Shown: positions 476 through 62,325, numbered from the stretch's first letter. The stretch: 64,000 bases of DNA from Gemmatimonadales bacterium (GCA_035708725.1 DASTFH010000151.1:3783-67782); one strand, 5' to 3'. Notes: generated by a model not told the origin, from the sequence alone. Numbers and translations are program-made.

Positions 476-1060
476 ATGGGCCTCGTGATCTTTCTCGTGG
501 TCGTGGTGGTCCTGGTGTTGTGGATGGTCGGCGCCTACAACCGGCTCATCTCGCTCAAGAACCAGGTCCTCAACGCGTGGAAGCAGATCGACGTGCAGCT
601 GAAGCGGCGGCACGACCTGATTCCCAATCTCGTCAACACGGTGAAGGGCGCGATGGAGTTCGAGCGCGGTACGCTTGAAGCCGTGATCTCGGCCCGCAAC
701 CGCGCGGTCTCAGCGACCGGTGTCAAGGCAACAGCGAAGGCCGAGGGCGAGCTGACCCAGGCGCTGGGCCGGCTCTTCGCGCTGAGCGAGGCGTATCCCG
801 AGCTCAAGACCAACCAGAACATTCTGTCCCTGCAGGAAGAACTCACCAGCACCGAGAACAAGGTGGGGTTTGCCCGGCAGCACTACAATGACGTGGCCAC
901 CACCTACAATACGGCGCAGTCCACCTTCCCGACCATGCTGGTCGCCGGCATCGCCAAGGCCTCGCCGGCCGACTTGTGGGAGCTGGAGAACCCGGCGGAG
1001 CGGGAGGTGCCGGTGGTGGATTTGGGAGGCGGCGGCAGAGAGCTGAAAGCTGAAAGCTGA
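476..1060 (+). CDS. lemA: LemA family protein
   Basis: N-terminal TM helix followed by YNRLISLKNQVLNAWKQIDVQLKRRHDLIPNLV and ALSEAYPELKTNQN, typical LemA signatures. The last 6 codons (ELKAES) and the stop are encoded by the AGCTGAA repeat array. Confidence 0.9.
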   Translation: MGLVIFLVVVVVLVLWMVGAYNRLISLKNQVLNAWKQIDVQLKRRHDLIPNLVNTVKGAMEFERGTLEAVISARNRAVSATGVKATAKAEGELTQALGRLFALSEAYPELKTNQNILSLQEELTSTENKVGFARQHYNDVATTYNTAQSTFPTMLVAGIAKASPADLWELENPAEREVPVVDLGGGGRELKAES

Positions 1061-1214
1061 AAGCTGTGAGCTGTGAGCTGTGAGCTGTTGTCACTCTGAG
1101 GCCGCGGAGCGGCCGAAGAGGCGGAGCCGTAGCCTGCGTGCCTTCGCTTCGCTCAGGGTGACAAGCTCACTCACCCCTCACCCCTCACCGCTCGCAGCTC
1201 ATAGCTCATAGCTC
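1041..1214. repeat. Composite hairpin element, type A core (1090-1162) flanked by heptamer arrays
   Basis: Left arm (AGCTGAA)3(AGCTGTG)3AGCTGTT at 1041-1089. Core GTCACTCTGAGG...CTCAGGGTGAC at 1090-1162. Right arm AAGCTCAC(TCACCCC)2..(TCATAGC)2 at 1163-1214, an approximate reverse complement of the left arm. Confidence 0.85.
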
Positions 1215-1216
1215 CA

Positions 1217-2224
1217 ATGACCAACTTCCTCGAACAGCAAGCCGCCAACCGCCGCCGGTCGCAGTGGCTGGTGGCGGGGTTCATTCTGTTCTTTGCCTGG
1301 GTCGGCTTTGGCGGCGACCTTGCCTTCGGCCTGCTCACGGCCGACAGCCCGCCCACGGCGTATCATCACGTCGTCCCCTTCATCGGCATCATCACATCCC
1401 TGCTGGCGATCGGCATTTGCTGGCATGCACAGCACAAGGGCGCCGAGCGGGTGCTCTGGGCCACCGGCGCATGGGAAATCATCGACCCGGCGACGCCGGA
1501 GCAGACCCAGTATGTGAACGTGGTGGAAGAGATGGCGATTGCCGCGGGCATCCCGCGGCCGCGCATCTGGATCGTGCCGGAGGAGGATCCCAACGCCTTC
1601 GCGACCGGCACGGACCCGGCCCATGCCAATATCGCGGCGACCGATGGCCTGCTGGCACTGCTCTCGCGCGACGAACTGCAGGGAGTGGTGGCGCATGAGA
1701 TGGCGCACATTCAGAACGAAGACACCCGGCTCATGACCCTGCTGGCCGGGATGATCGGCGCCATCCTGCTGGTGTCGGACGGAAGCCGGCGGTTTCTCGG
1801 CGGCTCGAATCGCAGCCTTGGCGGTCGCAAGGGGGGAGGAGGGAAGGGTGCGGCCGGCATGGTGGTGCTGGTGGTCTGGCTCATCAGCCTCATCATTGCG
1901 CCGCTGATCGCCCGCGTGCTGGCGATGTCGGTGAGCCGGAAACGCGAATATCTCGCTGATGCCACGGCGGCGCAGTTCACCCGGAATCCGCTGGCGCTGG
2001 CCTCGGCGCTGGAGAAGCTGGACTCGGCCACCCCGGCGACGCGCAGCATCGGCCGGGGCGCGGCGCACCTCTGCATCGTGGATCCGGGAGAGCGATCGAT
2101 CAGCGACGTTGACGGGCTGGTGGGCGATGTCTTCTCGTCGCACCCGCCCATCCGCCAGCGGATCATTCGATTGAAGGGGATGGGGTTTGCGTTTGCGAAG
2201 GCGGCGGTGGGACAGACGGCGTAG
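1217..2224 (+). CDS. M48 family (HtpX-like) zinc metalloprotease
   Basis: HEMAHIQNED (HExxH) between TM segments, plus a downstream EYLADATAAQFT glutamate motif. Lies immediately downstream of lemA. Confidence 0.85.
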   Translation: MTNFLEQQAANRRRSQWLVAGFILFFAWVGFGGDLAFGLLTADSPPTAYHHVVPFIGIITSLLAIGICWHAQHKGAERVLWATGAWEIIDPATPEQTQYVNVVEEMAIAAGIPRPRIWIVPEEDPNAFATGTDPAHANIAATDGLLALLSRDELQGVVAHEMAHIQNEDTRLMTLLAGMIGAILLVSDGSRRFLGGSNRSLGGRKGGGGKGAAGMVVLVVWLISLIIAPLIARVLAMSVSRKREYLADATAAQFTRNPLALASALEKLDSATPATRSIGRGAAHLCIVDPGERSISDVDGLVGDVFSSHPPIRQRIIRLKGMGFAFAKAAVGQTA

Positions 2225-2229
2225 GGCCC

Positions 2230-3258
2230 CTACATCTCCTCCAACTCCCGCCCCAGCACCGCCGGGTCGAACGGTACCGGCACCACCAGGTCAGCTCCGG
2301 TCGCGACCCCGGATACTCCGTCACCCGTCAGCGCCACGACACGATAGCTGCGCTCGTTCGCCGGAGGGAGACCGCCGTCGGGCACGTCGAGCGTCGACGC
2401 AAAGATGACGAGCGCGTTATCGCCGGTGGAGGCCATCCCGGACAGTTCTGACGCCGCATGACAGCGCCGCACACTCCATCCAGCTTGGCGCAAGAGCAGT
2501 GAGACGATCCGCGCCAGCGCTTCATCCGGCAGATAAAGCAGCGCGGCGCCCCGGGCGACGGCGGGCACCGCTGGCGGCCGCACGGCACCGTCGCTCAGGT
2601 CGATCATGCGCGTTGTGCCAACGTAGGTGGCGCTGCGCGCATCGCTCAGCGAGCCGATTTGCCGGACGATGTCGCGGATCCGTCCCAGTGCCACGCGCAC
2701 CTCGGTGAGCCCTTCACGCTGCGCCGGTGACAGCGCTTCGGGTGCCGCGAGCAGGAGGTCCACCTCGGCCGAGGCCGCCATGAGCGGATTGTTGATCTCG
2801 TGGTGGAGCGTGACCGTCATCTCACCCATCGCCGCTCGCCGCTCCGCCTGCACCAGCTCGGCCTCCGCCACTTCGAGCGCCCGCTTGAGCGCACGCTCCC
2901 GCCGCACCCGCTCCAGCACCTTGGGCAGCAGGTTGGGCAGGGTGCCGTCCTTCACCAGGTAATCGTCGGCCCCCCGCCGCAGCGATTCGGCCGCGAGCGC
3001 TTCATTGCCATGCGCCGTGATCATCACCACGCTGGGCGGCTCGCGCCGGTCGCGCAGGGAGCGGAGCAGGTCGACGCCCTCGTGATCCGGCAGCTGATGG
3101 TCGAGCAGCACCACGTCCGCCGCCTCGGCCTGCGCCAGGGCTCGCTCGGCGCTGGTCACATGGGCGACGCTGGAGACGCCGGCATTCTGCAGGACGGCAT
3201 CGAGCAGCCGGATGATGGCGGGGTCGTCGTCCACGATCAGCACGCGAAGCTCATCCAT
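2230..3258 (-). CDS. Receiver - HisKA - degenerate receiver protein with no ATPase domain (phosphotransfer-type)
   Basis: MDELRVLIVDDDP receiver, H-box LHHEINNPL, and no N/G1/G2 ATP-binding boxes afterwards. The C-terminal ~130 aa look like a degenerate receiver fold (LLYLPDE...VIFAS...VVALTGD). I chose the ATG at 3258, which leaves 2 nt after the GT2 stop; the ORF track starts at 3288. Confidence 0.7.
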   Translation of the reverse strand: MDELRVLIVDDDPAIIRLLDAVLQNAGVSSVAHVTSAERALAQAEAADVVLLDHQLPDHEGVDLLRSLRDRREPPSVVMITAHGNEALAAESLRRGADDYLVKDGTLPNLLPKVLERVRRERALKRALEVAEAELVQAERRAAMGEMTVTLHHEINNPLMAASAEVDLLLAAPEALSPAQREGLTEVRVALGRIRDIVRQIGSLSDARSATYVGTTRMIDLSDGAVRPPAVPAVARGAALLYLPDEALARIVSLLLRQAGWSVRRCHAASELSGMASTGDNALVIFASTLDVPDGGLPPANERSYRVVALTGDGVSGVATGADLVVPVPFDPAVLGRELEEM

Positions 3259-4813
3259 GGCCTGGGGCCTCGCGCGGACGGAAGCCAACCCGGTCGAATT
3301 TTTCCCAGCCGGTCTTGCCGCGCCATGCGTCCCACAGTCCGCGCAGCCGCCAGTACACCGTCAGCTGCCGGAAGCCGAGGTTCTCCATCACGGCGTAGGC
3401 CAGCAGGATGAAGACGTCACGCCGCCGCTCGAATGGCAGGAGCCCGCGCTGCAACCGGTCGGCGAGCCCGATCCGGAACTTCCACGCGCCCACCAGCACG
3501 GCGAAGATGTTCACCAGGATGCCGTACCCGAGCGACGCGAGGAGGAACGCCCACGCGTAGCTCCGGTTGAGGACGTGAAAGCCGAGCAGCTGTTCGGCGA
3601 CCAGGAAGAGCGCGATGAACACGTAGCCCGAGAACTCGATGATCGGGCCCCAGTACTCGAAGAACCAGAAGGCCGGCAGGGCAAACCAGCCGATCCGGCC
3701 GAACTTCTTCCGGAACAGCATTTCGCGATGATAAAGCAGCGACTCGCGGAGCCCGCGATGCCAGCGGCCGCGCTGCTTCCGGAGCGACGCAAGCGTCTCG
3801 GGCACTTCGGTCCAGGCCACGGGGTGCGGCAGGAAGGCAATGCGCTTGTCGCGGAGCTTGTCCTTGAGGAAGCGGTGCAGCCGGACAATGATCTCCATGT
3901 CCTCGCACACCGTGGTGCGCTGCTCGCCGATGTATTCGCGGACCACCTTGCTGTTCACGAAAGGCGTGAGATACCCGCCGGCACGGATCACGATTTCCTT
4001 CTCGAAGACGGCAAAGACGCCCGAGAGGATCAGCACGCTGTCGATGCGGTCGAGCCCGGTGCGGCCCGTCGTGAACGACCGGAGGTACTCCACCATCTGG
4101 AACCGCGCCAGGTCGTCCTTGGGAAGGCCCACGCGCACCACCCGGCTGTGCTCGATGGTACAGCCATTGGCGATGGCCACCTGGCCGCCGACGGCGGCCA
4201 CCCGCGGGTCTTCCTGCACCACCCGCATCAGTTCCTTGAGCGCCCGCGGGTCAAGGATCGAGTCGGCATCGAGCGACACGAAGAAGGGCGCCGTGGAGGC
4301 ATTGATGCCGGCGTTGAGCGCGTCCGCCTTCCCGCCGTTGGCCTTGTCGATCACGATGACGTGCATCACCTCGTCGGGCAGCGGGATGGTCGCCTCGTAG
4401 AGCGCGTGCACCGGTGCCGTGCCGATGGCGTCGCGGTAGGGCAGGTCGGTGCGGCGCAGCTTGAGCGCCGTCCTGAGCCGATCCAGCGTCGTGTCGCTGG
4501 AGCCGTCGTTGACGATGACGACCTCGAACCGCGGGTAGTCGCAGTGGATCAGGCTCATCACGCTGTCCACGATGGTCACGTCCTCGTTGTACGCCGGGAC
4601 GATCATCGTGAGCGGCTTGGTGTAATGGCTCTGGTCGATGAGGTCGAGGTCCTCGACGAAATGTCCGGCCACGCGCCGGCGCACCACCCGCGCGGAGAGC
4701 GCGATCAGCAGTGCCTGGTACGTGTTGTACAGGAGGAAGTACGCCAGGAAGAACGGCTGCAGGAACAGCGCGAGAAACAGGAACACATTGACGGCGACTT
4801 CCCTCACCGGCAC
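3251..4813 (-). CDS. Processive family-2 glycosyltransferase (PgaC/NodC/cellulose-synthase-like)
   Basis: IVPAYNED, VNDGSSDTT, DADS and QRGRWHRG (QxxRW), plus N- and C-terminal TM helices. Confidence 0.85.
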   Translation of the reverse strand: MPVREVAVNVFLFLALFLQPFFLAYFLLYNTYQALLIALSARVVRRRVAGHFVEDLDLIDQSHYTKPLTMIVPAYNEDVTIVDSVMSLIHCDYPRFEVVIVNDGSSDTTLDRLRTALKLRRTDLPYRDAIGTAPVHALYEATIPLPDEVMHVIVIDKANGGKADALNAGINASTAPFFVSLDADSILDPRALKELMRVVQEDPRVAAVGGQVAIANGCTIEHSRVVRVGLPKDDLARFQMVEYLRSFTTGRTGLDRIDSVLILSGVFAVFEKEIVIRAGGYLTPFVNSKVVREYIGEQRTTVCEDMEIIVRLHRFLKDKLRDKRIAFLPHPVAWTEVPETLASLRKQRGRWHRGLRESLLYHREMLFRKKFGRIGWFALPAFWFFEYWGPIIEFSGYVFIALFLVAEQLLGFHVLNRSYAWAFLLASLGYGILVNIFAVLVGAWKFRIGLADRLQRGLLPFERRRDVFILLAYAVMENLGFRQLTVYWRLRGLWDAWRGKTGWEKFDRVGFRPREAPGHG

Positions 4814-7800
4814 CGCTCCCGCATGGCGTGCACCGCGGCACGGATCGACGGCACCGGATCGGATTCCTCGACCTCGCGCGCCACCTGGTCACGCACCAGC
4901 GCCAGCAGCAGCGCCGCCGCCAGCCGGTGCCGCTCGTCGGGTGAGGTGCGCGCCGCCTCGCGCAGCTCCGCAAGATGATTGGCGTCCATCACGGCGCCCG
5001 CGGCCTCGGCCGGCGCCACGTCGTCGGGGAGTGCGGTGAGCTCGCCGCGGCTGATGGCCGTCACGGCGGCTGCCGCGCGCACCCGTGGCTCGGCGTCCGC
5101 CAGCAGCCGCGCCAGCGTACCCTGGCCCGGCACGGCGCGGAGCAGCATGGCCAGCTCGCGACGGACATCCGCGTCGGGGTCGTCAGCCAGTGCGGCCAGC
5201 GGAACCTCGAATCCTGCAGCGGCCGCGGCATGCGCCGCGGCGAGCCGCACCGGGGTCACCGGATCGGTGATGAGGCCCTGCACCAGCGGTTCTGTCGCGA
5301 GCTCGGTGCGCACGGTCAGCAGCCGCGCGAGGCCCTCGCGCACCGCCGGCTCCGCGCTCCGCGCCAGCGGGACCATCAGGCGCTGCAGCGCCGGGTGGTC
5401 AATGTAGCGCGCCACCTGCGTCACGACGACCGCCTCACGCCCGCTCGCGCCGGAGCCGAGCGCCAGGTCCATGAAGGAATCCCATCCTTCCTGTGCGCGC
5501 GCCGCCACATGTCGGAGCACCGACGGATCGTCATCGGCGCGAACCGTGGCAAGCAGGGCCGGCAGTGCCTCACCCACAGGGAGGTGCTCGAACAGCGTGA
5601 CCGCGGTGCGGCGCACCGTCAGGTTGGGATCGCCGAGCGCGCGTCGTGCGATAACGCCGAGCTCCTCGGAATCGAGCATACCGGCCACCGCCTCGAGTGC
5701 CGCGGCGCGCACGTCGGGGCTGGGATCGCCGCGGACAGCCTGCAGCAGGGTGCTCCGGCTCCGGTCGCCCTGGAAGGCGCTGAGTCCCGCCACCACGCGC
5801 CGGCGTTCCGCCGGATCGAGCACGCTGCGCATGCCATCTGCGAGTTCCTGCTCCATCTGCGTCCGCGTGAGCGACGCCAGTGCGCGCAGCTCAAGGCTAT
5901 GTGACTGCCGGAGCCGCATGCCCAGCAGCCGGTATTCGGCGTCGTCGCGCAGTCGGAGTTGGAGCAGCTCCCGCACCGCGTCGTCATCCGGCATGGCGGC
6001 GACCCTGCCCGCGACCGTCTCGTCGCCCAGTGCGCCAAGTGCCAGGACCGCCGCCGCGCGCACCGGAACGGGCGTCGCGCCGCTGCAGGCTCGCGCCAGG
6101 TCGGGCCGCGCCCGCTCCAGGCCGAGAATGCCGGCGGCGAGCGCCGCCCGCTCACGCACGGCGTCGGCGGGATCATGGGCCAGCATCGCGATGATGCGAT
6201 CGGCGCGCAACGTCTCGCCCAGCCGGATGGTGGCGGTGAGTGCGCCGGCGCGCACCGTCTCGTCGGGATCGTCCAGCCCTTCACTGGCCAGCGCGGCCGC
6301 GTCGGGACTCCGGTGGCGGCCGAGAATCGCAATGGCGGCGGCGCGAAGCGCCGGCTCCGGGTCACGCGCGAACTGGCTCAGGGCCGCGTCGCTGGCCGGT
6401 GATGGCGCGTCGGCCAGTGCGCGGGCAAATCCCAGCCGGGTCTCGGGGCTCGCCTTCTCTTCGATGAGTGCGGCGTGGAGCTCGCCGAGCCGGTCGGGTG
6501 CGAGCGTTGCCACCGCGGACGTGATGGCCTGGCGCAGTTCCGGTGACGCACCGGAGAAGGCACGCACCAGCGGCTGCACCACACTCTCATCGCCCAGTCG
6601 CCCAAGCGCTTCGGCCGCGGCAGCGCGCACCCGGACGTCCGAGTCGCTGAGCCGCTCGACCAGCTCGGGAACCAGCGCGGTGAGGTTGGCGGTCGCGGAC
6701 GCTTCGGCGGCGGCATGCCGCACCGAGGCGGCCGGATCGGTGAGCAGGCGGGAAATTTCAGCGGAGGCATCGCTCGCGCCGACCAGCCCCAGGGCACGCG
6801 CCACCGCGGCGCGCACCGCGACCTCCGGATCCGAGGCCATGTTCCGGAGGTCCATCGTGATCGCCGGACCGCCGAGATCGCCCAGCAGGTGGATGGCTTC
6901 GGTGCGCACCGCCTCATCGGAATCGGTCATGCCGGCGAGCGCGGCTGGTACCGCCTCGCGCTGGCCCAGCGTGCGCAAGGTGTCCAGGGCCGCGGCACGC
7001 ACCGTTGGATCCTGGTCGCTGGTGGCCCGGATCAGCTCGCGGGCAAGGTCGCGACGGCCGGTGCGCCGGATGGCCGCCACCACGGCGAGTCGCACCGCGC
7101 TTGACGGATGCAGCAGCAGCTCGGCCAGGAGTTCCCGGGCGCCTGCCGCCGCAAACTTGGTAAGGATCTCGCGGGCTTCCTCCGGGCGGTCGTTCTCCTC
7201 GATCATGCGCACCGTGCGCGCGGGCACGCCCAGGCGCTCGAGCGCCACCGCGGAGCGAATGCGCAGCTCGGGGTCGGGGTCATCCAGCGCCACGAGCAGG
7301 GGTCCTTCCGCCTGGTCGCCGATCTGCTCCAGCGCTTCCACGCTCCGCATCCGCACCCACCACGCCGGGTCGCCCAGCGAGCGCACCAACCGTTCGATCA
7401 CTTCGGGATCGTCGAACTGCCCGAGCGCGCCGGCGATGCGGGCGCGCACAAAGGGAGCGGGATCGGTGAGGAGATGTTCGAGGAGGTAGGGCGTGGCCCG
7501 GCGGTCGCCCAGGCGACCCAGCGCGTAGGCCGACTTGGCCCGGACTTCATCTTCGAGATCACCGAGGGAGCGGACCAGGACCGGGAAGGCGCGGTGGGCA
7601 TGCACGTCGCCCAGGATGTTGGCCGCCCACGCGCGCGCATGATGACGGCCCCCTTCCTCCAGAAAACTGATCATCGGCTGGACGACGTGCTCGCCGTGGC
7701 GCGTGAGGATGTCGGCCATGCGAGGGGCGAGCCACACTTCGGCGTTGCGCAGTGCCTCGACCAGCGGCGCCACCGCGCGCGGGTCGGCGATGCGGGCCAA

Positions 7801-8283
7801 TGCGCGGAGCGCGATCTCCCGTACGTCGGCATCCTCGGTGCGGGTGTTCTGCACCGTTTCCAGCAGGGCCGGCACGGCCGAGGCGTTGCCGACTCGTCCC
7901 AGCAGCTCGGCGGCGAAGGCGCGTTCGCGCCACCGGCGCGCGTGCCGCAGCCGCTCGATGTATTTCTCGATCAGTCCCAGCCGGTCATAGGCATCGAGCA
8001 GCCACGCCGGCCGGTCTTCGACATCACGTGCCTGCTCCTCGAGCACCGCTTCGAGCGCCTCGAGATCACGCAGGGAGCCGAGCTGGCGGATGGCGGGTTC
8101 GAGCAGCTCGCGCTCGCGTGAGGCGAGGCCGGCCACGAGGTCGCGGTAGGGTCCCTTGCGCGCGGCAAGCCGGCGCTCGAGACCATTGAGGTAGGCGGTG
8201 TAGCCGAACCAGATCAGGATCGCGACGGCGCCAATGGCGGCCATCGCGAGCGCGGCGTAGAGAATGAACTGGAGGAACGTCAT
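4804..8283 (-). CDS. Membrane-anchored HEAT-repeat (PBS-lyase-like) protein, 1159 aa
   Basis: One N-terminal TM helix, then more than 25 tandem ~30-aa units of the form D.D..VR.AA..ALG..G. Overlaps the GT2 start by 10 nt and the upstream CheY gene by 4 nt. Confidence 0.8.
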   Translation of the reverse strand: MTFLQFILYAALAMAAIGAVAILIWFGYTAYLNGLERRLAARKGPYRDLVAGLASRERELLEPAIRQLGSLRDLEALEAVLEEQARDVEDRPAWLLDAYDRLGLIEKYIERLRHARRWRERAFAAELLGRVGNASAVPALLETVQNTRTEDADVREIALRALARIADPRAVAPLVEALRNAEVWLAPRMADILTRHGEHVVQPMISFLEEGGRHHARAWAANILGDVHAHRAFPVLVRSLGDLEDEVRAKSAYALGRLGDRRATPYLLEHLLTDPAPFVRARIAGALGQFDDPEVIERLVRSLGDPAWWVRMRSVEALEQIGDQAEGPLLVALDDPDPELRIRSAVALERLGVPARTVRMIEENDRPEEAREILTKFAAAGARELLAELLLHPSSAVRLAVVAAIRRTGRRDLARELIRATSDQDPTVRAAALDTLRTLGQREAVPAALAGMTDSDEAVRTEAIHLLGDLGGPAITMDLRNMASDPEVAVRAAVARALGLVGASDASAEISRLLTDPAASVRHAAAEASATANLTALVPELVERLSDSDVRVRAAAAEALGRLGDESVVQPLVRAFSGASPELRQAITSAVATLAPDRLGELHAALIEEKASPETRLGFARALADAPSPASDAALSQFARDPEPALRAAAIAILGRHRSPDAAALASEGLDDPDETVRAGALTATIRLGETLRADRIIAMLAHDPADAVRERAALAAGILGLERARPDLARACSGATPVPVRAAAVLALGALGDETVAGRVAAMPDDDAVRELLQLRLRDDAEYRLLGMRLRQSHSLELRALASLTRTQMEQELADGMRSVLDPAERRRVVAGLSAFQGDRSRSTLLQAVRGDPSPDVRAAALEAVAGMLDSEELGVIARRALGDPNLTVRRTAVTLFEHLPVGEALPALLATVRADDDPSVLRHVAARAQEGWDSFMDLALGSGASGREAVVVTQVARYIDHPALQRLMVPLARSAEPAVREGLARLLTVRTELATEPLVQGLITDPVTPVRLAAAHAAAAAGFEVPLAALADDPDADVRRELAMLLRAVPGQGTLARLLADAEPRVRAAAAVTAISRGELTALPDDVAPAEAAGAVMDANHLAELREAARTSPDERHRLAAALLLALVRDQVAREVEESDPVPSIRAAVHAMRERCR

Positions 8284-8651
8284 GGCGCGGACAGCAGGCC
8301 GCGGGCGGTACCAAGCAGTTCGGTCACGTCGATCGGCTTGGTGAGGTAGGCGCTGACCCCGACTTCGTCTGCCCAGAAGCGGTCAGCAGCCTGGTCCTTG
8401 GACGTGAGCATGAGGACGGGCGTGGCGGAGGTCTCCGGCAGGGCGCGGAGCTGGCGGCAGGTCTGGTAGCCGTTCATCCCCGGCATGACCACGTCGAGTA
8501 TGACCAGGTCGGGGCTGTGTTCCCGGGCCAGGGTCACGCCATCCGCGCCGCCGGGCGCAGTGAGTACGCGATACCCCGCCATGGCGAGGCAACGCTGCAA
8601 CAGTTCGCGCTCGATGACATCGTCATCAATGATCAGCACAAGACGGCTCAT
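8280..8651 (-). CDS. Single-domain CheY-like response regulator
   Basis: LIIDDD, DLVILDVVMPGMNG and LTSK receiver motifs; 123 aa. Confidence 0.85.
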   Translation of the reverse strand: MSRLVLIIDDDVIERELLQRCLAMAGYRVLTAPGGADGVTLAREHSPDLVILDVVMPGMNGYQTCRQLRALPETSATPVLMLTSKDQAADRFWADEVGVSAYLTKPIDVTELLGTARGLLSAP

Positions 8652-8688
8652 GACCGGGCCTTTGGCCTACGCCCCGGGGGAGTGGCGG

Positions 8689-9753
8689 TCAGCTCTCTTC
8701 TTCGTCGAGGAATGTGAGCGTGGGTCGGTGGTGGACTACCGTTTCCAGCGCCTTGTGGACCGCTGGATCAATAACCGTGCCCACGAGGTCGCGGAGACGC
8801 TCGACAGCCATGTCGGGCGGCATGCGCTCCTGGTAGGGGCGCGAGGTGGTCAGGGCGTCGTAGATCTCGACCGCGCCGATGATCCGGGCCCCGAAGGGGA
8901 TGGCGTCGCCCGCCAGGCGGTCGGGGTAGCCGTAGCCATCGTAGCGCTCATGGTGGCTGCGGACGAACACGATCACATCCTGCAGGTGAACCAGCGGACT
9001 GAGGATCTGCGACCCGACGATGACATGCTGCTTGACGTGGTCGTACTCCTCGTCAGTGAGCGGACCCTGCTTGTTCAGGATCTCTTCCCTGATGCCGATC
9101 TTGCCGATGTCATGCAGCCGGCCGGCGGTGCGGACCCGTTCGATGGCTTCATCGTCGAAGCCCATCTCCGCCGCGATGGAGGCCGACATGTCGGCCACCC
9201 GTGCGGAGTGGCCCCGGAGGTAGGGATCCTTGGCCTCGAGGGCATTGACCAGCGCCTCGAGGGTGGCGACCGAGATGCGCTCCAGGTTGGCGCGCTCGGC
9301 CCGCACCTCGGCCGCGCGCACCGCCACCTCTTCCTTGAGCCAGCGGTTGAGCTCCTGGTCTTCCATCCGCGACGAGCGGCGCGCCAAAGCGCGCTGGATC
9401 GCGCGCCCCAGCACATCCAGGTCAATCGGCTTGGTGAGGTAGTCGTAGGCTCCGCGCTGCATGCAGAGTGCGGCGGCCGTGGCATCGTTGACCGCGGTCA
9501 GCATGAGGATGGCGGCATTGGGCTCGGCCTGGAGCATCTTGGGCACCAGGTCCAGCCCGCTGCCATCGGGGAGCTTCACGTCGAGCAGGACGCAGGTGAT
9601 CTTGCGACGCTGCAGCGCGCCAAGCGCTTCCTCGCCGGTGGCGGCGGTCAGCACTTCATAGCCGCGTCCGGTCAGGAACCGTTTCAGGGCACTCCGGATG
9701 GAATCCTCATCATCGACAACGAGGACGGCGACAGGACCATCAGCCAGGACCAC
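8689..9753 (-). CDS. Response regulator with HD-GYP domain (c-di-GMP phosphodiesterase type)
   Basis: N-terminal receiver (VLVVDDEDS, LLDVKLPDGSG), then HDIGKIGI and HHERYDGYGYP. Confidence 0.85.
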   Translation of the reverse strand: MVLADGPVAVLVVDDEDSIRSALKRFLTGRGYEVLTAATGEEALGALQRRKITCVLLDVKLPDGSGLDLVPKMLQAEPNAAILMLTAVNDATAAALCMQRGAYDYLTKPIDLDVLGRAIQRALARRSSRMEDQELNRWLKEEVAVRAAEVRAERANLERISVATLEALVNALEAKDPYLRGHSARVADMSASIAAEMGFDDEAIERVRTAGRLHDIGKIGIREEILNKQGPLTDEEYDHVKQHVIVGSQILSPLVHLQDVIVFVRSHHERYDGYGYPDRLAGDAIPFGARIIGAVEIYDALTTSRPYQERMPPDMAVERLRDLVGTVIDPAVHKALETVVHHRPTLTFLDEEES

Positions 9754-9828
9754 GAAGACTCCGCGGCGAGGGGAAATCCGTTCCCAAAAGTACGGAACCC
9801 CGGTTCGTGAGTCGAGGGTTGGCTCGGT

Positions 9829-10665
9829 TCACCCGACGAAATCCACCTGTACTCGTTCCGGAATGAGTCCTGCCTCGAACGCGCGGTCCAGCAGCAGGCG
9901 CACCGCCTCACGACCCCGCTCCCCGTAGTCCACGGTCCAGTCGTTCACGTACATGCCCACAAAGGTGTCGGTGCGCTCATCCCCGATACCCCGGTTGAAC
10001 TGCATGGCGTGGCTCAGGGCAGGGGCGCGGTGGGCCAGGCCGTACTCGATGCTGGCGCGGAGGTCACGGGCAATCTGCTGCATGACCGCCTCGCCCAGGT
10101 CGCGACGGACCACGTTGCCGCCCAGCGGCAGCGGCAGGCCGGTCTCCCGCATCCACCAGGCGCCCAGGTCCTCCCAGAGGTGGAGGCCGTCATCGGCAAA
10201 GGTGAGCTGTCCCTCATGGATCAGGAGGCCCACCTCCACGTCGCCGCGGTGAACCGCATCCTCGATCTGGTCGAATGGGACCACGACGTACTCCACGTCC
10301 GGCTGGTAGAGCTGGAGCGCGAGGAATGCCGTGGTCAGCGTGCCCGGCACGGCCACTCTCCTGCCCTTGAGCGCGGTGCGCGGGTCGGCAGGCGCGGGAC
10401 TCGTGGACACGAGACGCGGGCCATAGCCGTCGCCCATGGAGGAACCCGACGCCAGCAAGGCGTAGGTGCGCCAGAGATGGGCATAGGCGTGAATCGACAC
10501 CGCTGACACCTCGAGCTCACCCTTCAGGGCGCGCCGGTTCAGTGACTCGATGTCCGACAGCTCGTGGACATACTGGATGTCGCCGGTGTCGAGTTTCCCT
10601 TCGGCGAGCGCGTAGAACATGAACGCGTCGTCGGAATCGGGGCTGTGGGCTACGTGGATGAGCAT
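9829..10665 (-). CDS. MqnA/MqnD/SBP-family protein (futalosine-pathway-like)
   Basis: The N-terminus HSPDSDDAFMFYALAEGKLD resembles the SPCPNDTFxFYAL signature of the MqnD family. The subfamily cannot be resolved by eye. Confidence 0.55.
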   Translation of the reverse strand: MLIHVAHSPDSDDAFMFYALAEGKLDTGDIQYVHELSDIESLNRRALKGELEVSAVSIHAYAHLWRTYALLASGSSMGDGYGPRLVSTSPAPADPRTALKGRRVAVPGTLTTAFLALQLYQPDVEYVVVPFDQIEDAVHRGDVEVGLLIHEGQLTFADDGLHLWEDLGAWWMRETGLPLPLGGNVVRRDLGEAVMQQIARDLRASIEYGLAHRAPALSHAMQFNRGIGDERTDTFVGMYVNDWTVDYGERGREAVRLLLDRAFEAGLIPERVQVDFVG

Positions 10666-10666
10666 T

Positions 10667-10761
10667 GAGTTGAGAGTTAAGAGTTGAGATTTGAGGGAGA
10701 AGAGCGGGCCAGCCGAGAGTCGATCGCTCGACTCTCAACTCTTAACTCTTAACTCCCTCCC
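10667..10761. repeat. Hairpin array with inner palindrome
   Basis: Left arm GAGTTGA GAGTTAA GAGTTGA GATTTGA at 10667-10694. Inner palindrome GAGAGTCGA-tcgc-TCGACTCTC at 10715-10736. Right arm (AACTCTT)2AACTCCC. The stop codon of the zinc-ribbon gene (10749-10751) lies inside the right arm. Confidence 0.8.
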
Positions 10762-11570
10762 GCTCGACGTCTGAAATCATCTATCACATTCCTGTGATCC
10801 ACATACTCCTCCCGCCGCGCGGCGCTCTCGGCGGGCCAGGCCTTGAGGAAATCGGCGTAGGCCCGGCGCAGGGCGGTACTGTCGGCCTGGAACTGGGCGA
10901 TGTCGCCGCGGACGGCGTAGGCCAGGAGATAGCCCGGCGTCACGCGGAGCATCGTGTCGGTGAGCGCCAGCGCCTCGGTGAGCCGCCCGACCTGCGCGTT
11001 GAGGATGGCGGCGTGGTAGCGATCGTCCTGCGTCACCGTGTCGAGCTGGGCATAGGCGCCAAGCGCCATCGGCGTGAAGTTGATCACCGTGCTGCTGTCG
11101 CCCTGGGCGGCCGCCTGCATGACCCGGTTGTTGAGCCGGAGGAAGCGCTCCGATGGCGAGAGCTGGCTGATGTCGGGAGCCTGTCCCGTGGGCAGCCCGC
11201 CACCCGGATCCTGGGTGACCTGCGCGCTGTTGGCGTTGCCGGCGTTGGCCATGTCCGGCGTCCGGGCCCCGGTGGTCCCTGTCAGCATCTTCCAGACAAT
11301 GATCGCGAGGAGCGCAACGACCACGGCGCCTGCCACCATCCAGGCGGCGCGCTCCGAGCGGCTCGCCGCGGGCGTAGGCGCCAGCATCCGGGTGCCGGCA
11401 ACGGGGGCACCGCAACGATGGCAGAAGCGGGCCTGCGCCGAGACTTCGGCGCCACACGCCGCACAGGTCCGCGGGCCCTGCGCCGCGCCGCACGAACTGC
11501 AGAATTTCCCGTCCGCTGGCCGGCCGCAAGCAGGGCAGGTCGGGAAGGTCGCTGGTGTCTGGTCTGGCAT
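10749..11570 (-). CDS. Double zinc-ribbon membrane protein with helical-repeat C-terminal domain
   Basis: CPACG..FCSSCG and CAACG..FCHRCG motifs, then one TM helix and a periplasmic helical domain. Confidence 0.55.
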   Translation of the reverse strand: MPDQTPATFPTCPACGRPADGKFCSSCGAAQGPRTCAACGAEVSAQARFCHRCGAPVAGTRMLAPTPAASRSERAAWMVAGAVVVALLAIIVWKMLTGTTGARTPDMANAGNANSAQVTQDPGGGLPTGQAPDISQLSPSERFLRLNNRVMQAAAQGDSSTVINFTPMALGAYAQLDTVTQDDRYHAAILNAQVGRLTEALALTDTMLRVTPGYLLAYAVRGDIAQFQADSTALRRAYADFLKAWPAESAARREEYVDHRNVIDDFRRRAGGS

Positions 11571-11586
11571 GGAGGGAATGTAATTA

Positions 11587-11789
11587 GGGCGTGGGGCATG
11601 GGGCGTGGGGGTCGCGGGTTGCGCTCGCCGAAGCCAGCACTCTGGTCATCCTGAGCGCAGCGAAGGATCTACTGGCCCGATTCCGGATCGGGGTAAATGG
11701 ATCCTTCGGTCGCTGCGCGACCTCTGGATGACACGACCCATGACTTAAGCCCCACGCCCCACGCCCCAAGCCCAGGCCCGCGCCCCATG
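11587..11789. repeat. Composite hairpin element, type B core (11645-11732)
   Basis: Left arm GGGCGTG GGGCATG GGGCGTG. Core GTCATCCTGAGCGCAGCGAAGGATC...GATCCTTCGGTCGCTGCGCGACCTCTGGATGAC. Right arm is a C-rich complement (CCCACGCCCCACGCCCC...). Confidence 0.8.
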
Positions 11790-11848
11790 TCCTCCTTGCC
11801 CCCTTCCCGATCCCGTCCGAGATTACCCGCTCCCGTTTCCAGGCCATC

Positions 11849-13225: not shown

Positions 13226-13447
13226 ATGGGCGGGACGGGCAGGATGGGCGGGACCTGAGTCGAGCGTCATTGCGAGGAGGCGAAGCCGACGAAGCAATCG
13301 GGTGGCCTGCGAATTGATGCTTAAGCGACCCGATTGCTTCGCACCCTTCGGGTGCTCGCAATGACGCGCGTGGCGAGCTTCGGCCTGCCCATCCTGCCCA
13401 TCCTGCCCATCCTGCCCATCCTGCCCATCTAGCCCGTCCTGCCATCC
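13225..13447. repeat. Composite hairpin element, type C core (13266-13365)
   Basis: Left arm GATGGGCGG GACGGGCAG GATGGGCGG GAC. Core GTCATTGCGAGG...CTCGCAATGAC. Right arm (CTGCCCATC)5 TAGCCCGTC CTGCCATCC. Sits between the convergent glnA and DUF3108 stop codons. Confidence 0.85.
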
Positions 13448-14913: not shown

Positions 14914-14928
14914 GGGTATGATTGTCGC

Positions 14929-49296: not shown

Positions 49297-49319
49297 GGGA
49301 TCGGGGCTTGCGCAAATTT

Positions 49320-49353: not shown

Positions 49354-49370
49354 GGCGGGTACCCGCTTCC

Positions 49371-53281: not shown

Positions 53282-53305
53282 CGCTGGGCGCTGTGCGCCC
53301 AGCGC
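53281..53305. terminator. Perfect 11-bp hairpin between convergent genes
   Basis: GCGCTGGGCGC-tgt-GCGCCCAGCGC starts at the last base of the SCO stop codon. There is no U tract. Confidence 0.45.
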
Positions 53306-53347
53306 TCAGCCTTTCGCCTTCAGCCTTCCGCCCCCAGCCCCTCAGCC
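53305..53347. repeat. Degenerate heptamer array
   Basis: CTCAGCC TTTCGCC TTCAGCC TTCCGCC CCCAGCC CCTCAGCC. It contains the RND stop (53320) and encodes its tail AEGLGAEG. Confidence 0.7.
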
Positions 53348-58998: not shown

Positions 58999-59037
58999 CC
59001 TGATCAATACGGTGAATGGGGGGGATTTGTTGACCAA

Positions 59038-59222
59038 GATGGGCAGGATGGGCGAGATGGGCAGGACTTTGATTGAGCGTCCTTGCGAGCCGCGAAGCGG
59101 CGAAGCAACCGGGTAGCCGAAATCGAGATGCTGGCGACCCGATTGCTTCGTCGAGCCCTCCGGGTTCTCCTCGCAATGACGCGTCAGGGTTAGCTTCATC
59201 CCGCCCATCCCGCCCACGGTCC
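59038..59222. repeat. Composite hairpin element, type C core (59079-59180)
   Basis: Left arm GATGGGCAG GATGGGCGA GATGGGCAG GAC. Core GTCCTTGCGAG...CTCGCAATGAC. Right arm (CATCCCGCC)2 CACGGTCC, ending at the DUF2207 stop. Confidence 0.85.
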
Positions 59223-61024
59223 TACCAGCTTCCTCCGCCCCCACCCCCTCCACCTCCACCCACCGACCCGCCGCCACCCGAGCCCGAGCTCGAGCCGGGA
59301 GACGATCCCATGGTGCGGGTGGCCGCGGTCTGGAAGCTGGAGAGGCCGCTGCTGAAGTTGCCCACATTGAACTGGCCGGATGTTCCGACATACCAGTTGG
59401 GCGGTTGGGACGCCAGGACGCCGGCAAACTGGCTCACCCAGATGTCGCTCACGTCCAGCGCCACCGCATAAGGCAGCAGCGCCGAGAAGAGTTCGGTGGT
59501 ACGCTCGGGACCTTGCGACATCTCGAGCTCCGATTTCTCGGCGCGGCGGATGTACTCCTCGAGTCCCTTCACCTCGCGCCAGCGGCGAGCGCCGTCGGCG
59601 GTCTTGGCAGGCATGATGCCGCTGAACGCCAGGATGATGATGCCGGTGAGGGCTATGCCCGCGCCGAGCACCACGTTGGTGGTTACGGCGCCGATCGGGA
59701 TACCGGCGATGGTCAGGAGGATGCCGAGCACCAGGTAGCCATTCCGCACCGATGCGGGACTCCTGGGAAAGAGTCGTTCCTTCACCAGGAAGTCGTACAT
59801 CCCTTCCTTGATGGCAGATATATGGGTGTAGAACTCGTTGTGCAGGTCGCTCATGCGCCGAGTGGTGCTGCCGTCGTCAAAAACGCCGTCGAGCACGGTC
59901 GTCTCATACGGAACAAGGTCGCCGGGCAACGGCTTGGCGGTGCGTGAGAGTTCCCAGTCGGTCTTTGAAAGACCCAGCGAGCGAAGCGCCTTGCCGAGAA
60001 AGGAGTCCTCACCGAGTGTGGCGGTGAGGTTCGATGGCACTTCCGCAATGTTGATGTAGCCGCGCACGGCAAGGTCGAGCAACGTGGCGACGATGTCATC
60101 CATGTCGGCGCGCTGGTCCACCAGCGTTCCCGCTGCGCCCGGCGGCAGGCCGGCGGGCGGATGCCAGTTGGGGACAATGCTGCCCGGATCCGGCTCGCGG
60201 CCCTTGCTGCGCCAGCGGCTGAACATGCCGAAGAATCCGAGGAGCGGCAGCAGCACCGGCCACCAGAAGCTGGCCTCATCGCGCAGCTTGTCCGCTGCTG
60301 TGGGTGCGGCGATCACCCCCTTGGGAAACGCCGCCACCATGGTGAGCCCTTCACCGGGATCCAGGCGGCTAGCGCTGAACGCGTACTGCCCCGGACCAGT
60401 GACCGCCGCCGTGCAGCGTTCGTTGCTGTTGCTCTCGGCCCACCCGGCATAGCACCAGGCTGAAGACCCAGCGCCGTCCGCCCTGTCCGCCCCGTCCGCC
60501 GGTAAGTCCACCGTCGCACTCGCCTTCAGGATGGGCACCGGCCAGTTGGTGCCCGTCACCTGCCAGTAGAGCTCGTCGTGATCGTCAAAGAAGCCGAGTC
60601 CACGGTCCAGGCGGTAGCGAATGATGTATGTCTGCACGCCGGACACTGTGACGTCGGGATCGCCGATCCGGATGCGCACGTTGTTTCCGCTGCTGACCTG
60701 TGTGCCCAGTTTCCGGCCCTGCTCATCGGTCACGCTGAGCACGTCGAGGCCCACCTTGACCGTGCCAGCTCGAACGGGTGCACCGGCATCAAGAACCTTC
60801 GCATAGCTGACCGGGATCTCGCGGTAGATCCCATGCTTCTGGAGCGAGCCGAAGTCCACCGTGATCTGCTCGATCACATTGATGGTGCGGTCGGCTTTCA
60901 CCGAGTACTGGGCATCGAACGACTGGATGACCCAGCCGGTATCCTGGGCAGTGAGTGAAACGGGAAGTAGAAGAACGATAAGGAGCACGACGGCACGACT
61001 GAGCATCGTGAATCGCTCGTTCAC
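59222..61024 (-). CDS. DUF2207 membrane protein
   Basis: Signal peptide, large N-terminal beta domain, 3-4 TM helices, Gly-rich tail ...SSGSGGGGSVGGGGGGGGGGSW. Overlaps lemA by 4 nt. Confidence 0.7.
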   Translation of the reverse strand: MNERFTMLSRAVVLLIVLLLPVSLTAQDTGWVIQSFDAQYSVKADRTINVIEQITVDFGSLQKHGIYREIPVSYAKVLDAGAPVRAGTVKVGLDVLSVTDEQGRKLGTQVSSGNNVRIRIGDPDVTVSGVQTYIIRYRLDRGLGFFDDHDELYWQVTGTNWPVPILKASATVDLPADGADRADGAGSSAWCYAGWAESNSNERCTAAVTGPGQYAFSASRLDPGEGLTMVAAFPKGVIAAPTAADKLRDEASFWWPVLLPLLGFFGMFSRWRSKGREPDPGSIVPNWHPPAGLPPGAAGTLVDQRADMDDIVATLLDLAVRGYINIAEVPSNLTATLGEDSFLGKALRSLGLSKTDWELSRTAKPLPGDLVPYETTVLDGVFDDGSTTRRMSDLHNEFYTHISAIKEGMYDFLVKERLFPRSPASVRNGYLVLGILLTIAGIPIGAVTTNVVLGAGIALTGIIILAFSGIMPAKTADGARRWREVKGLEEYIRRAEKSELEMSQGPERTTELFSALLPYAVALDVSDIWVSQFAGVLASQPPNWYVGTSGQFNVGNFSSGLSSFQTAATRTMGSSPGSSSGSGGGGSVGGGGGGGGGGSW

Positions 61025-61596: not shown

Positions 61597-61608
61597 GGAG
61601 GAAAGATA

Positions 61609-61674
61609 GTCGAGGGTCGAGAGTCGAGGGTCGAGGGTTCGTTACCCTGTTGCTCGACTCTCGACCCTCGACTC
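61609..61674. repeat. Hairpin array GTCGAGG family
   Basis: GTCGAGG GTCGAGA (GTCGAGG)2, 15-nt loop, CTCGACT CTCGACC CTCGACT. The cupin stop (61673) lies in the right arm. Confidence 0.85.
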
Positions 61675-62167
61675 ACTTCGTCGGATCGTCCTTCGGATTC
61701 ACGTACGTCAGCTGGAACGGGCCCATCATGTGCACCTGCACGACCGTCTCGCCCTGGGCCCTGGCATAGTGATGCGCGTTGGCCGGGGCGGTGATGAAAT
61801 CGCCCACCTTGAGCGACGGGAGCTCGGCGTCAGGCGACATCGTGTCGCCCATCCCGATGACGAGCTGGCCCTTGATCACGGTCACATGTTCGTCGGTCGG
61901 GTGCCAGTGCGGCGGGATGGTGTAGTTGTTGGGCATCTTGAGCCGCACGGTGACGATGGCGCTGGCCGCAGGATCGCCCTGCAGGACCACCATCTGGGCG
62001 CCGGCCGGGAAGATGGCCGGGGCGGGGCCCCACGCCAGCTTGTCGGCCCGCATGGCGGGATCGGCACCGGCATGATCGGTGGGTTGCTGGGCCATGAGGC
62101 TTGGCGCGGCAGTGAAAGTAACGAGCGCGATGAGCCACGCGCTGGTGCGGAAATGACGTGTATTCAT
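61673..62167 (-). CDS. Secreted cupin-domain protein
   Basis: ATG at 62167 gives a signal peptide. Cupin motifs PPHWHPTDEHVTVIKG and GDFITAPANAHHY. Confidence 0.7.
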   Translation of the reverse strand: MNTRHFRTSAWLIALVTFTAAPSLMAQQPTDHAGADPAMRADKLAWGPAPAIFPAGAQMVVLQGDPAASAIVTVRLKMPNNYTIPPHWHPTDEHVTVIKGQLVIGMGDTMSPDAELPSLKVGDFITAPANAHHYARAQGETVVQVHMMGPFQLTYVNPKDDPTK

Positions 62168-62261
62168 TGCACGCTCTCCTCGGAAGGAATCCATTCGGTG
62201 AAGCAGATCCGCAGATTACGCCGATTTCGCAGATTGCTTCGATCTTGTGGCTGCTCCCAGG

Positions 62262-62325
62262 CTGTCCACCTGTCCACCAGTCCGTCTGTCCGTCTGTCCG
62301 TCTGTCCGTCTGTCCGTCTGTCCGA
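62262..62325. repeat. Octamer array (CTGTCCAC)2 CAGTCCGT (CTGTCCGT)4 CTGTCCGA
   Basis: Counted directly. Same unit family as 30979-31010 and 47094-47117. Confidence 0.9.

Follow-up and report, generated by a model that had tools for sequence, protein, structure and literature searches.

Polar hairpins built from tandem arrays of 7-9-nt units at gene ends in Gemmatimonadales: candidate extragenic palindromic variable-number tandem repeats

What builds the long repeat hairpins that occupy the spaces between genes in Gemmatimonadales? The question is raised by a 64,000-nt stretch of a soil-dwelling Gemmatimonadales bacterium (GCA_035708725.1, DASTFH010000151.1:3783-67782), all of which we analysed and which we call the window. 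An original prediction, drawn from the bases alone, described tandem arrays of 7-, 8- or 9-nt units that lie between genes, near stop codons, mostly answered by an array that is roughly their reverse complement. We found that such arrays are spread genome-wide in many Gemmatimonadales lineages and are not a device for certain genes, that whole units are gained and lost between near-identical strains, and that the two arms of a locus stay complementary even as the unit sequence changes from species to species. The explanation that we favour, with roughly even confidence, is that the elements are extragenic palindromic variable-number tandem repeats, grown by slippage, limited by selection, and akin to repetitive extragenic palindromic (REP) sequences and bacterial interspersed mosaic elements (BIME).

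We searched the window with Tandem Repeats Finder, checked the output against the raw sequence, and joined overlapping rows with a period of 7-9 nt and at least 2.8 copies into merged arrays. There are 38 of these, compared with 0-5 in each of 20 dinucleotide-preserving shuffles, so the original prediction was right to set chance aside; every array that it quoted is present where it was placed. Rows with a 7-nt period are the most numerous (24), followed by 9 nt (10) and 8 nt (8), and other periods are almost empty. Array sequence covers 207 nt/kb of non-coding DNA versus 8 nt/kb of coding DNA, a 26-fold difference. With genes called by a purpose-written codon-usage model, which matches the public JGI calls over 1856-15077, arrays lie in 18 of about 27-29 spacers of at least 60 nt, close to the earlier count of 17 of about 26.

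About a dozen unit families occur in these 64 kb, and approximately 10 families recur at unlinked loci within the same genome. Turned the G-rich way, the units are 50% G, and most have no run of three G residues (for example GAGCTGT, GAGTTGA, GTCGAGG and GGTCGTC). Five arrays are unpaired (28647-28701, 28838-28921, 30886-30979, 42949-42986 and 62262-62324). A CRISPR array was rejected, in agreement with the earlier reading: these units are 7-9 nt long and run head to tail with no spacers, whereas CRISPR arrays have 23-50-nt repeats and unique spacers. At the Rfam gathering threshold, the only match in the window was tRNA-Cys, so the database comparison called for at the outset placed none of the array elements in a family; relaxing the threshold to E <= 1 over 10600-13500 and 20700-20950 gave chance-level matches only.

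Facing arrays can pair. Of 21 candidate elements, 13 form long hairpins whose z-scores run from -3.9 to -11.2 (100 dinucleotide shuffles per candidate), with arms reaching 70-110 nt; the strongest are 13213-13450 and 59030-59222 (Table 1). This bears out the long imperfect hairpins that had been predicted. The pairing is also strongly polar. Among 48 inverted array pairs, the 5' arm is G-rich and the 3' arm C-rich in 43; 2 pairs are the other way round and 3 were not scorable (binomial p = 6e-11, shared ancestry uncorrected). The rule holds across four spacer types; 9 of 11 pairs follow it in divergent spacers and all do in convergent spacers. Even arrays that share a spacer and are not complementary run G-then-C (28647-28701 with 28838-28921, and 30735-30761 with 30886-30979). 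Because a palindrome of this kind reads alike on both strands, its polarity must belong to the element itself; the genes on either side do not set it. Avoidance of Shine-Dalgarno sequences or start codons was rejected as its cause, since convergent spacers, which are free of starts, show the strongest polarity. The original prediction missed this feature, as it did the REP-like cores at seven loci and the arrays in divergent spacers and in frame within genes.

Stop codons are often close to arrays. In the window, an array lies within 12 nt of 17 of the 55 stop codons and of 2 of the 55 start codons (Fisher p = 2e-4), in line with the association first proposed. Arrays next to a stop codon read G-rich in the mRNA in 63 of 75 scorable cases. 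All 19 stop codons listed at the outset check out, two of which (20755 and 59222) adjoin arrays of only 2.2-2.6 copies, and the C-terminal tails ELKAES, QDGQDD, GGQMDSWTDGQ and AEGLGAEG are indeed encoded by arrays. The claim that divergent promoter spacers lack arrays stands for 39033-39173, 41843-41930 and 49297-49370, where the array scan found none, and fails for three others (11388-11848, 28636-28940 and 62168-62562) as well as for 31 of 140 divergent spacers in related genomes. The brnA (CopG antitoxin) and brnT toxin pair at 27137-27728 on the minus strand forms a lower-GC islet, array-free as had been reported.

Strain differences are concentrated in the arrays. We compared the window with near-identical contigs (97.6-99.8%) from several JGI soil metagenomes, and nearly all multi-base indels are whole units, located at eight arrays (Table 1). 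A comparison of unit numbers, suggested with the original prediction, thus revealed clear polymorphism. At a greater distance the unit itself changes: a contig 82-91% identical to the window (L105) has a 7-nt GGTCAAC/GTTGACC hairpin at the site where the window has 8-nt GGTCGAGR/CTCGACCY units (element E13).

We then sampled relatives through the glnA neighbourhoods of 80 Gemmatimonadota genomes, 1.25 Mb in total. The window GlnA is at most 81% identical to the proteins of Gemmatimonadales metagenome-assembled genomes (MAGs). The architecture was found in approximately 65 of the 80 genomes. Densities reach about 12 arrays per 10 kb in some genomes and are 0 in others, and with 5.9 the window ranks near the top. 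Periods again favour 7 nt (121 arrays), ahead of 8 nt (99), 9 nt (52) and 6 nt (46), with few others. When 272 of these arrays were examined for a partner within 300 nt, 117 had an inverted one and 32 a direct one. Coverage is 46 nt/kb in non-coding versus 2.9 nt/kb in coding DNA (16-fold). Arrays occupy 18 of 50 convergent, 47 of 286 co-directional and 31 of 140 divergent spacers, and in co-directional spacers they lie nearer the stop in 31 cases and nearer the start in 16 (p = 0.04). Unit choice is almost free, with 193 distinct canonical units among 295 arrays (about 1.3 Mb); GGTCRAC and GTCGAGR arrays do recur in other genomes. Array-bearing relatives include contigs of 0.4-2.7 Mb, and some equally well assembled relatives are array-free, so the arrays are a lineage-specific trait and not an assembly artefact. 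CAWJVX01, CAWGED01 and CAVYZY01 are examples of array-rich lineages, and CAWJWG01, CAVVWJ01 and CAWIYG01 of array-free ones.

The spacer 3' of glnA allows the same site to be followed across species. It contains arrays in 21 of 77 genomes, and in 12 of those the array begins 0-6 nt past the stop codon. Within a given genome one arm complements the other, and the units differ from one genome to the next: GCGGGGAA/CTTCCCCG, GCGGGGCA/CTGCCCCG, AGGCGGTC/GCCTGACC, ATTGGGGG/CCAATCCC and GATTGAA/CAATCTG, with GATGGGCGG/CTGCCCATC in the window. Array-free relatives have approximately 10-25 nt and no hairpin between the glnA stop and the convergent DUF3108 gene, which indicates that the hairpins are dispensable additions and not an elaborated ancestral terminator.

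Arrays are depleted from coding sequence and turn up wherever they can be tolerated, in-frame positions within genes among them. The mutagenesis cassette at 18709-24068 (plus strand), which comprises an imuA-like gene (RecA_N), an imuB-like gene and dnaE2, has a repeat hairpin of -96 kcal/mol between imuB and dnaE2 and two in-frame arrays within dnaE2; a third in-frame array is in a RAYT-like gene (RAYT, REP-associated tyrosine transposase). By alignment to Pol III alpha, the inverted pair at 22262-22312 of dnaE2 falls in a variable loop. A DUF2207 gene has a coding CCGTCCGCC array at 60471-60508, where strain contig L092 has a complex indel cluster, and the protein itself appears to vary in this region.

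How might such elements arise? Units of 7-9 nt exceed the loops that MutS-type repair handles, and quasipalindrome-templated mutation and slipped-strand mispairing would supply whole-unit gain and loss and arm-to-arm conversion. These mechanisms are known for single mutations and are not known to produce genome-wide repeat hairpins with a fixed G/C polarity. We propose that the arrays would grow through slippage during replication, their units being too long for mismatch repair to correct, and that template switching within the palindrome, as in quasipalindrome correction, would maintain arm complementarity. Leading and lagging nascent strands would meet the central hairpin 5' to 3' from opposite sides; if expansion were favoured when the nascent strand is G-rich, a G-arm followed by a C-arm would result, independent of gene orientation and fork direction. 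Expansion would proceed outward until halted by selection, at coding sequence on the stop side and at promoter or ribosome-binding sequence on the start side, and the apparent anchoring to stop codons would follow from this. Once present, the elements probably act as REP and BIME do, as stable 3' RNA hairpins, which would be a side effect and not their reason for being; a terminator role is possible.

Several observations weigh against this explanation. The slippage, template-switching and nascent-strand steps are inferred, and the strain contigs come from short-read metagenome assemblies. Unit homogeneity shows no gradient between the inner and outer halves of arrays (31 vs 33, p = 0.95), so unit addition at the hairpin base is unsupported. 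Copy numbers of paired arms correlate weakly (r = 0.29), and arm-to-arm templating therefore cannot be tight. The approximately 10 recurring unit families, together with elements E4 and E18, which are two copies of one composite, are more easily explained if finished elements are dispersed than if growth is purely local, and imply that some dispersal or ectopic conversion occurs. Finally, the excess of stops over starts and the high occupancy and perfect polarity of convergent spacers would also be explained by a 3'-end role under selection.

That last possibility is one of two alternatives that are both live and both compatible with slippage-grown palindromes. It takes the elements to be selected RNA structures, either tail-less ("I-shaped") bidirectional terminators or 3'-end mRNA stabilisers; units would be the way in which stems lengthen, and selection on the RNA stem would keep the arms complementary. 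We think it unlikely as the primary explanation. The bias toward stops in the window, the lean toward the stop side in co-directional spacers of relatives, and the top occupancy of convergent spacers all fit it. So does the shortage of conventional signals: hairpins followed by a T-tract occur at chance level (7 vs 6.1 expected, and 7 vs 5.9), and some other 3'-end signal is needed. The terminator scan matched just two structures, the palindrome at 25106-25140 and, at 20820-20845, the inner mini-hairpin of one REP-like core, and array hairpins have no T-tract. A hairpin also directly follows tRNA-Cys, and the glnA 3' hairpin is kept in its 21 genomes despite sequence turnover.

The folding itself argues the other way. 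If transcripts were the target, G-U pairing should give the sense RNA an advantage; the sense strand was the more stable at 10 loci and the antisense at 15, with a mean difference of +0.3 kcal/mol, so nothing indicates selection on one strand's transcript. Hairpins of -57 to -96 kcal/mol separate the probable operon partners imuB and dnaE2, and likewise dnaE2 and the gene that follows it; several extend over the start codon on their downstream side. Arrays are also found in divergent spacers and in frame within genes, many are unpaired, copy number is free to vary among strains, and relatives with the same glnA junction do without a hairpin. Thus, the role implied by the original prediction, in which transcripts end or are stabilised at arrays, is not supported by sense-strand stability, by the probable imuB-dnaE2 operon or by the array-free 10-25-nt spacers.

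The second alternative is that whole hairpins, arrays included, are mobile REPIN-like (paired, inverted REP sequences) or MITE-like (miniature inverted-repeat transposable element) units copied by a trans-acting enzyme, for example the RAYT-like Y1 protein encoded at 43260-44078, with slippage acting only later. This possibility we regard as doubtful. It rests in part on REP-like palindromic cores, which the slippage-grown palindromes that we favour include as well: seven window loci are built on them, six complete and one half. A complete core is two inverted copies of a mini-hairpin tagged with (C/T/G)GTCA. Core (a), TGTCACTCTGAGG..CCGAAGAGGC...CCTTCGCT.CGCTCAGGGTGACA, lies at 1089-1163, 20789-20868 and 30797-30877; core (b), CGTCATTGCGAGG...GCTCGCAATGACG, has complete copies at 13262-13369 and 59076-59184 and a half copy at 28790-28821; and core (c), GGTCATCCTGAGCGCAGCGAAGGATC...GGATGAC, has one copy at 11645-11732. 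Within this one window the cores therefore occur 3, 2.5 and 1 times per 64 kb, as inverted doublets. Their end tags (CGTCATTGCGAGG or CGTCCTTGCGAG for core (b), TGTCACTCTGAGG for core (a) and GGTCATCCTGAGCG for core (c)) are of the CGTC/TGTC/GGTC type. Each half core has a stem of approximately 5 bp (ATTGC/GCAAT, CTCT/AGAG) around a further mini-hairpin with a 10-20-nt interior, and the inner stem of core (a) shows compensatory changes among its three copies (GGCCGC/GCGGCC, GGCTGC/GCAGCC and GGTCGC/GCGACC).

Further evidence for copying comes from other contigs and from the gene content. A metagenome scan found six more core (a) loci, and the ends TGTCAC...GTGACA are conserved across the three window copies and these six. 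E4 and E18 have core (b) and GATGGGCRG arrays in common, a different hairpin family occupies the E13 site in the 82-91% identical relative, and some related genomes have "empty" 10-25-nt spacers. A fixed 5'/3' polarity would be natural if elements were recognised as single-stranded hairpins, and the recurrence of unit families at unlinked loci, and of GGTCRAC and GTCGAGR arrays in other genomes, is in accord with dispersal. The cores also resemble REP sequences in another respect. IS110-family elements are known to target REP sequences, and in strain L004 (1-1155) such an element (DEDD_Tnp_IS110 and Transposase_20) interrupts core (c) at window position 11650/11651, with GTCATC on one side and CTGAGCG on the other; core (c) may be an IS110-type REP target.

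Against this stands the diversity of the units, 193 in 295 arrays, where a family recognised by a transposase should share sequence. All six further core (a) loci are flanked by 7-8-nt arrays of differing units, and the arrays around core (a) differ at every locus. Core boundaries in the window and in the core (a) contigs showed neither target-site duplications nor defined outer ends, and a recognisable shared core is absent from the majority of hairpins, both in the window and among relatives. Orthologous arrays persist across species with their units diverging gradually. The RAYT-like protein has the motifs NHVHGI and WQRNYYERI and scores 68 bits against NCBIfam REP_Tyr_transpos, under the cut-off of 80. 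Its gene is itself interrupted just past the HUH motif by an in-frame array of an 18-nt unit (9.6 copies, 43622-43794, DVGTDR repeats), and a search of the gene's flanks for cores (a), (b) and (c) found none. The same gene has a perfect coding palindrome at 43797-43822, which encodes VGAGLRPAP. In another Gemmatimonadales MAG (L018, 9444-9800), one arm has five tandem copies of a 28-nt REP-like unit, TGTCATCCCGAGGAGCGGNAGCGACGCC, and the opposite arm has four 19-nt units (GCTCGGGATGACA plus 6 nt); the array-hairpin architecture thus also occurs with REP-sized units.

A bolder combination, which we consider rather improbable, is a polar palindrome-building process in Gemmatimonadales, perhaps also in Xanthomonas and Geobacter, that would make G-arm/C-arm hairpins at gene ends de novo, to be used as tail-less bidirectional terminators or insulators. 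In one version the process would consist of nascent-strand slippage at a stalling hairpin together with arm-to-arm templating; in another, a dedicated enzyme, such as an HUH/RAYT-type nuclease, would act on single-stranded hairpins. If true, it would be a new way to make and maintain 3'-end signals, in which sequence drifts while structure and polarity are enforced.

Regulatory arrays, whether protein-binding iterons, G-quadruplex switches or contingency loci that tune neighbouring genes by unit number, are very improbable. Unit number does vary near starts, as in (CGCCTAAC)n, 20 nt upstream of a CLC-channel gene, which differs by -6 to +3 units; the G-rich arms of E3, E4, E15, E18 and 32054-32075 have quadruplex-capable runs; and similar paired sites in Geobacter were annotated by their authors as binding sites of a global regulator (PMC2700814). 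However, 193 distinct units are too many for one or a few regulators and exclude a sequence-specific binding factor, most arrays are 3' of genes, and the genes that neighbour them have no common function. Quadruplexes were rejected as a general explanation, given that most units lack G-runs. An artefact of assembly or of high-GC composition, for which the frequent breakage of short-read contigs at arrays such as that upstream of the CLC-channel gene might speak, is already refuted by the shuffled controls, by hairpin z-scores down to -11, by the same loci in many independent assemblies (JGI, ENA, NCBI, Logan) and by arrays within megabase-size contigs of relatives.

The original prediction did not recognise the architecture as a described one; the literature supplied close precedents. 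Heptamer-class repeats have been known since 2007 to be over-represented in some bacterial genomes, with mechanism and function not established (as cited in PMC4692102). The nearest case is the intergenic heptamer repeat GGGAATC of Xanthomonas (GGGGAYT in Nostoc), of unknown function (Rehm et al. 2015; PMC4692102). Each Xanthomonas genome has 70-75 convergent inverted GGGAATC array pairs capable of forming stem-loops; the arrays are G-rich on the sense strand, lie within 50 bp of stop codons, and are rare between divergent open reading frames (ORFs) and in coding sequence. Species differ in copy number and repeat length and keep the same type of site. The elements described here share the G-rich, mostly intergenic tandem arrays of about 7 nt, the same polarity, the convergent inverted pairs and the G-rich sense strand on the stop side. 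They differ in that Xanthomonas has one unit family genome-wide, GGGAATC, which can form G-quadruplexes, compared with about a dozen in 64 kb here and 193 units in relatives; units here are 7, 8 or 9 nt, most cannot form quadruplexes, seven loci have REP-like cores, and arms extend to 70-110 nt.

Geobacter metallireducens offers a second precedent. Classes 1-3 of Aklujkar et al. 2009 comprise 3-5 tandem units of GTTGCTYN (8 nt), TCTCCGTS[Y] (8-9 nt) or MTYCTGA (7 nt), in dozens of copies that form opposite-strand pairs at variable distance, sometimes with insertion sequences at a fixed distance (PMC2700814). The passages on these classes describe the same paired, opposite-strand tandem sites of 7-9 nt. 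Unlike the window, they present a few fixed consensus families, read as regulator sites, and do not report locus-specific units, unit polymorphism or an association with stops.

The resemblance to REP, BIME and REPIN (PMC3116915, PMC3733652) lies in extragenic palindromes made of inverted dimers, in long hairpins situated between genes and within operons, and in the tagged cores, the IS110-family insertion in a core and the presence of a RAYT-like gene. Those systems have one sequence genome-wide, whereas the arms here are tandem arrays whose unit differs by locus. The CGTC-tagged REP superfamily of Di Nocera et al. 2013 (PMC3733652) bears an unpaired CGTC (or TGTC/CCTC) tag at one end, a trait that our tagged cores share. 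It has an 8-9-bp stem starting from A-T pairs, a 4-5-nt loop and a short CCA-like tail, in contrast to our cores, with their stems of about 5 bp and inner mini-hairpin. A REPtron has its single-copy RAYT gene flanked by REP or REPIN sequences, unlike the RAYT-like gene here. Lineage-restricted heptamer arrays, mainly intergenic, sometimes over stop codons and of unknown function, are also found as cyanobacterial short tandemly repeated repetitive (STRR) sequences, which are direct arrays of one or a few units per genome (as cited in PMC4692102), and as the TAACTGA repeats of Beggiatoaceae, which are nearly all direct, with 1 indirect repeat in 170 sets, and mostly just upstream of starts (PMC4679880). 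As far as these accounts go, both differ from the inverted pairs of the window in being almost entirely direct and in using one or few units per genome.

A literature search on Gemmatimonadota repeats returned nothing relevant, and the Mrazek survey (PMC4060949) had no matching terms. Core sequences searched as text strings retrieved only primers and unrelated papers, and a follow-up on GGGAATC was uninformative. New here are the phylum, the near-free choice of unit, a quantified polarity rule, arms that co-change across species and the union with REP-like cores; also new are the in-frame invasion of coding loops and the dispensability seen in sister lineages.

Table 1. Array elements and related features of the window, with folding scores and unit changes seen in strain contigs (MFE, minimum free energy)
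Feature	Position	Strand	Composition	Context	Folding	Unit changes in strains
E1	1040-1216		(AGCTGAA)3(AGCTGTG)4 at 1040-1088; core (a) 1089-1163; right arm of CTCACCC/AGCTCAT arrays	1040-1088 overlaps LemA stop; right arm ends 3 nt before next ATG	MFE -94.8, z -6.2	
E2	10652-10770		GAGTTGA x4 vs ACTCTTA x3.6	Covers start codon of gene at 10665 and stop codon of gene at 10749	z -5.9	GAGTTGA: +1 in L001, L002
E3	11587-11773		GGGCGTG array; core (c) GTCATCCTGAGCGCAGCGAAGGATC...GGATGAC 11645-11732; GCCCCAC array	Divergent spacer	z -8.3	
E4	13213-13450		GATGGGCGG-type arm; core (b) 13262-13369; CCTGCCCAT x7.2 arm at 13384-13447	Fills convergent glnA/DUF3108 spacer, both stops included (CTAG...CTAG)	MFE -152.5 kcal/mol, z -11.2	CCTGCCCAT (right arm): +1 / -1 in L001-L004
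Array	15395-15417		GCGCTCA x3.3, weakly self-complementary	Begins 2 nt past stop codon	z -2.2	
E6	20753-20916		GGTCGTC arm; core (a) 20789-20868; CCGACGA/CCGATGA arm	imuB/dnaE2; overlaps imuB stop and dnaE2 ATG	z -8.6	
In-frame inverted pair	22262-22312	+	(GGTCAAC)3(GTCGACC)4, 51 nt	In dnaE2; encodes ...VNGQQSTVDRRPSTVDR...		
In-frame array	23726-23795	+	TGCGACC x10	In dnaE2; encodes TCDLRPVTCDLRPATRDLRPVT		
E7	24069-24152		GTCGGGC/GTCGAGC arm vs CGCTCGA arm, short loop	Fills spacer from dnaE2 stop to next ATG	z -6.2	
E8 palindrome	25100-25145		AGCGCTS units	Across two overlapping convergent ORFs	z -5.3	
7-nt array blocks	28026-28139		CAGCGTT, CAGCGCA, CAGCGCT, CAGCCCT; 13.6 copies in total	Abuts/overlaps OsmC stop 28123		
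Unpaired G-rich array	28647-28701		GAGCTGT x7.9	Divergent spacer, 11 nt from OsmC start codon	z +0.8	
Half core (b) and C-rich array	28790-28921		Half core 28790-28821; CGCCTAAC x10.5, 100% matches, 28838-28921	Array ends 20 nt before CLC-channel start codon		CGCCTAAC: +3, -6, -3, +1
E11	30735-31013		CAGGGCGAG x3; core (a) 30797-30877; CACAGCG x13.4 (30886-30979); ACTGTCCA units	Convergent spacer; arms non-complementary, G-then-C polarity kept	z -1.2	CACAGCN: -1 to -3
Arrays	32054-32191		GGGACGC x3; TCTAACCG x3.2	Second overlaps stop 32175		
E13	37705-37815		GTCGAGGA x4 vs CTCGACCT x8.9	Fills DUF1634/DUF4153 spacer	z -3.9	GGTCGAGR: -1 in L103
Unpaired array	42949-42986		GCCGAGCC x4.8	10 nt past stop codon		
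RAYT-like Y1 (HUH) transposase gene	43260-44078	+		Pfam Y1_Tnp E = 1e-5		
E15	45840-45945		Arms of GGGCAGGGCGAGC and GCTCGCCCTG type	From directly after tRNA-Cys to stop 45939	z -6.2	
E16	47030-47120		CAGGGCGAG arm vs CTTGCTCGC arm, then CCTGTCCGT units	Arms across stop 47072	z -6.4	
Small GC-rich hairpin and array	53282-53340		GCCTTCC array	Convergent junction	z -1.9	
E18	59030-59222		GATGGGCAG x3; core (b) 59076-59184; CATCCCGCC x2.2		-109.1 kcal/mol, z -10.7	CATCCCGCC: -1 in one strain
E19	61600-61680		GTCGAGG x4.3 vs CTCGACT x3.1	Across stop 61673	z -7.0	
Unpaired C-rich array	62262-62324		CTGTCCGT x7.9	Divergent spacer		CTGTCCGT: -1, +3

Some loci in Table 1 bear on annotation. In the region 45763-45945, a 106-nt repeat hairpin begins no more than 5 nt past tRNA-Cys (GCA) and extends as far as the convergent gene's stop codon (45939). 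The convergent ORFs 24138-25124 (plus strand) and 25051-26007 (minus strand) overlap by 74 nt across the palindrome at 25100-25145, and the last codons of the minus-strand ORF come from the palindrome and from the antisense of the neighbouring ORF; it is possible that the original stop was displaced by the repeat. For the minus-strand gene that extends from 57529, the likeliest start is the ATG at 58998 (MKSLLFCAVPFLIVAC..., a lipoprotein-like signal) and not 59277, which makes 58999-59221 a true spacer housing E18. The independent short-read contigs L086-L090 begin 114-187 nt upstream of the CLC-channel gene (near 28780-28840), at or beside (CGCCTAAC)n, and arrays appear to fragment metagenome assemblies.

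In practice, the arrays break short-read assemblies and create array-encoded C-terminal tails and false ORF overlaps, and they are prospective high-resolution strain markers for uncultured soil Gemmatimonadota. Any explanation has to accommodate a unit sequence that is almost free, a period preference of 7 over 8 over 9 nt, a polarity of 43 vs 2, arms that change together, and dispensability in sister lineages. Taken together, these constraints point to a generative process at the level of the DNA rather than to a sequence-specific factor.

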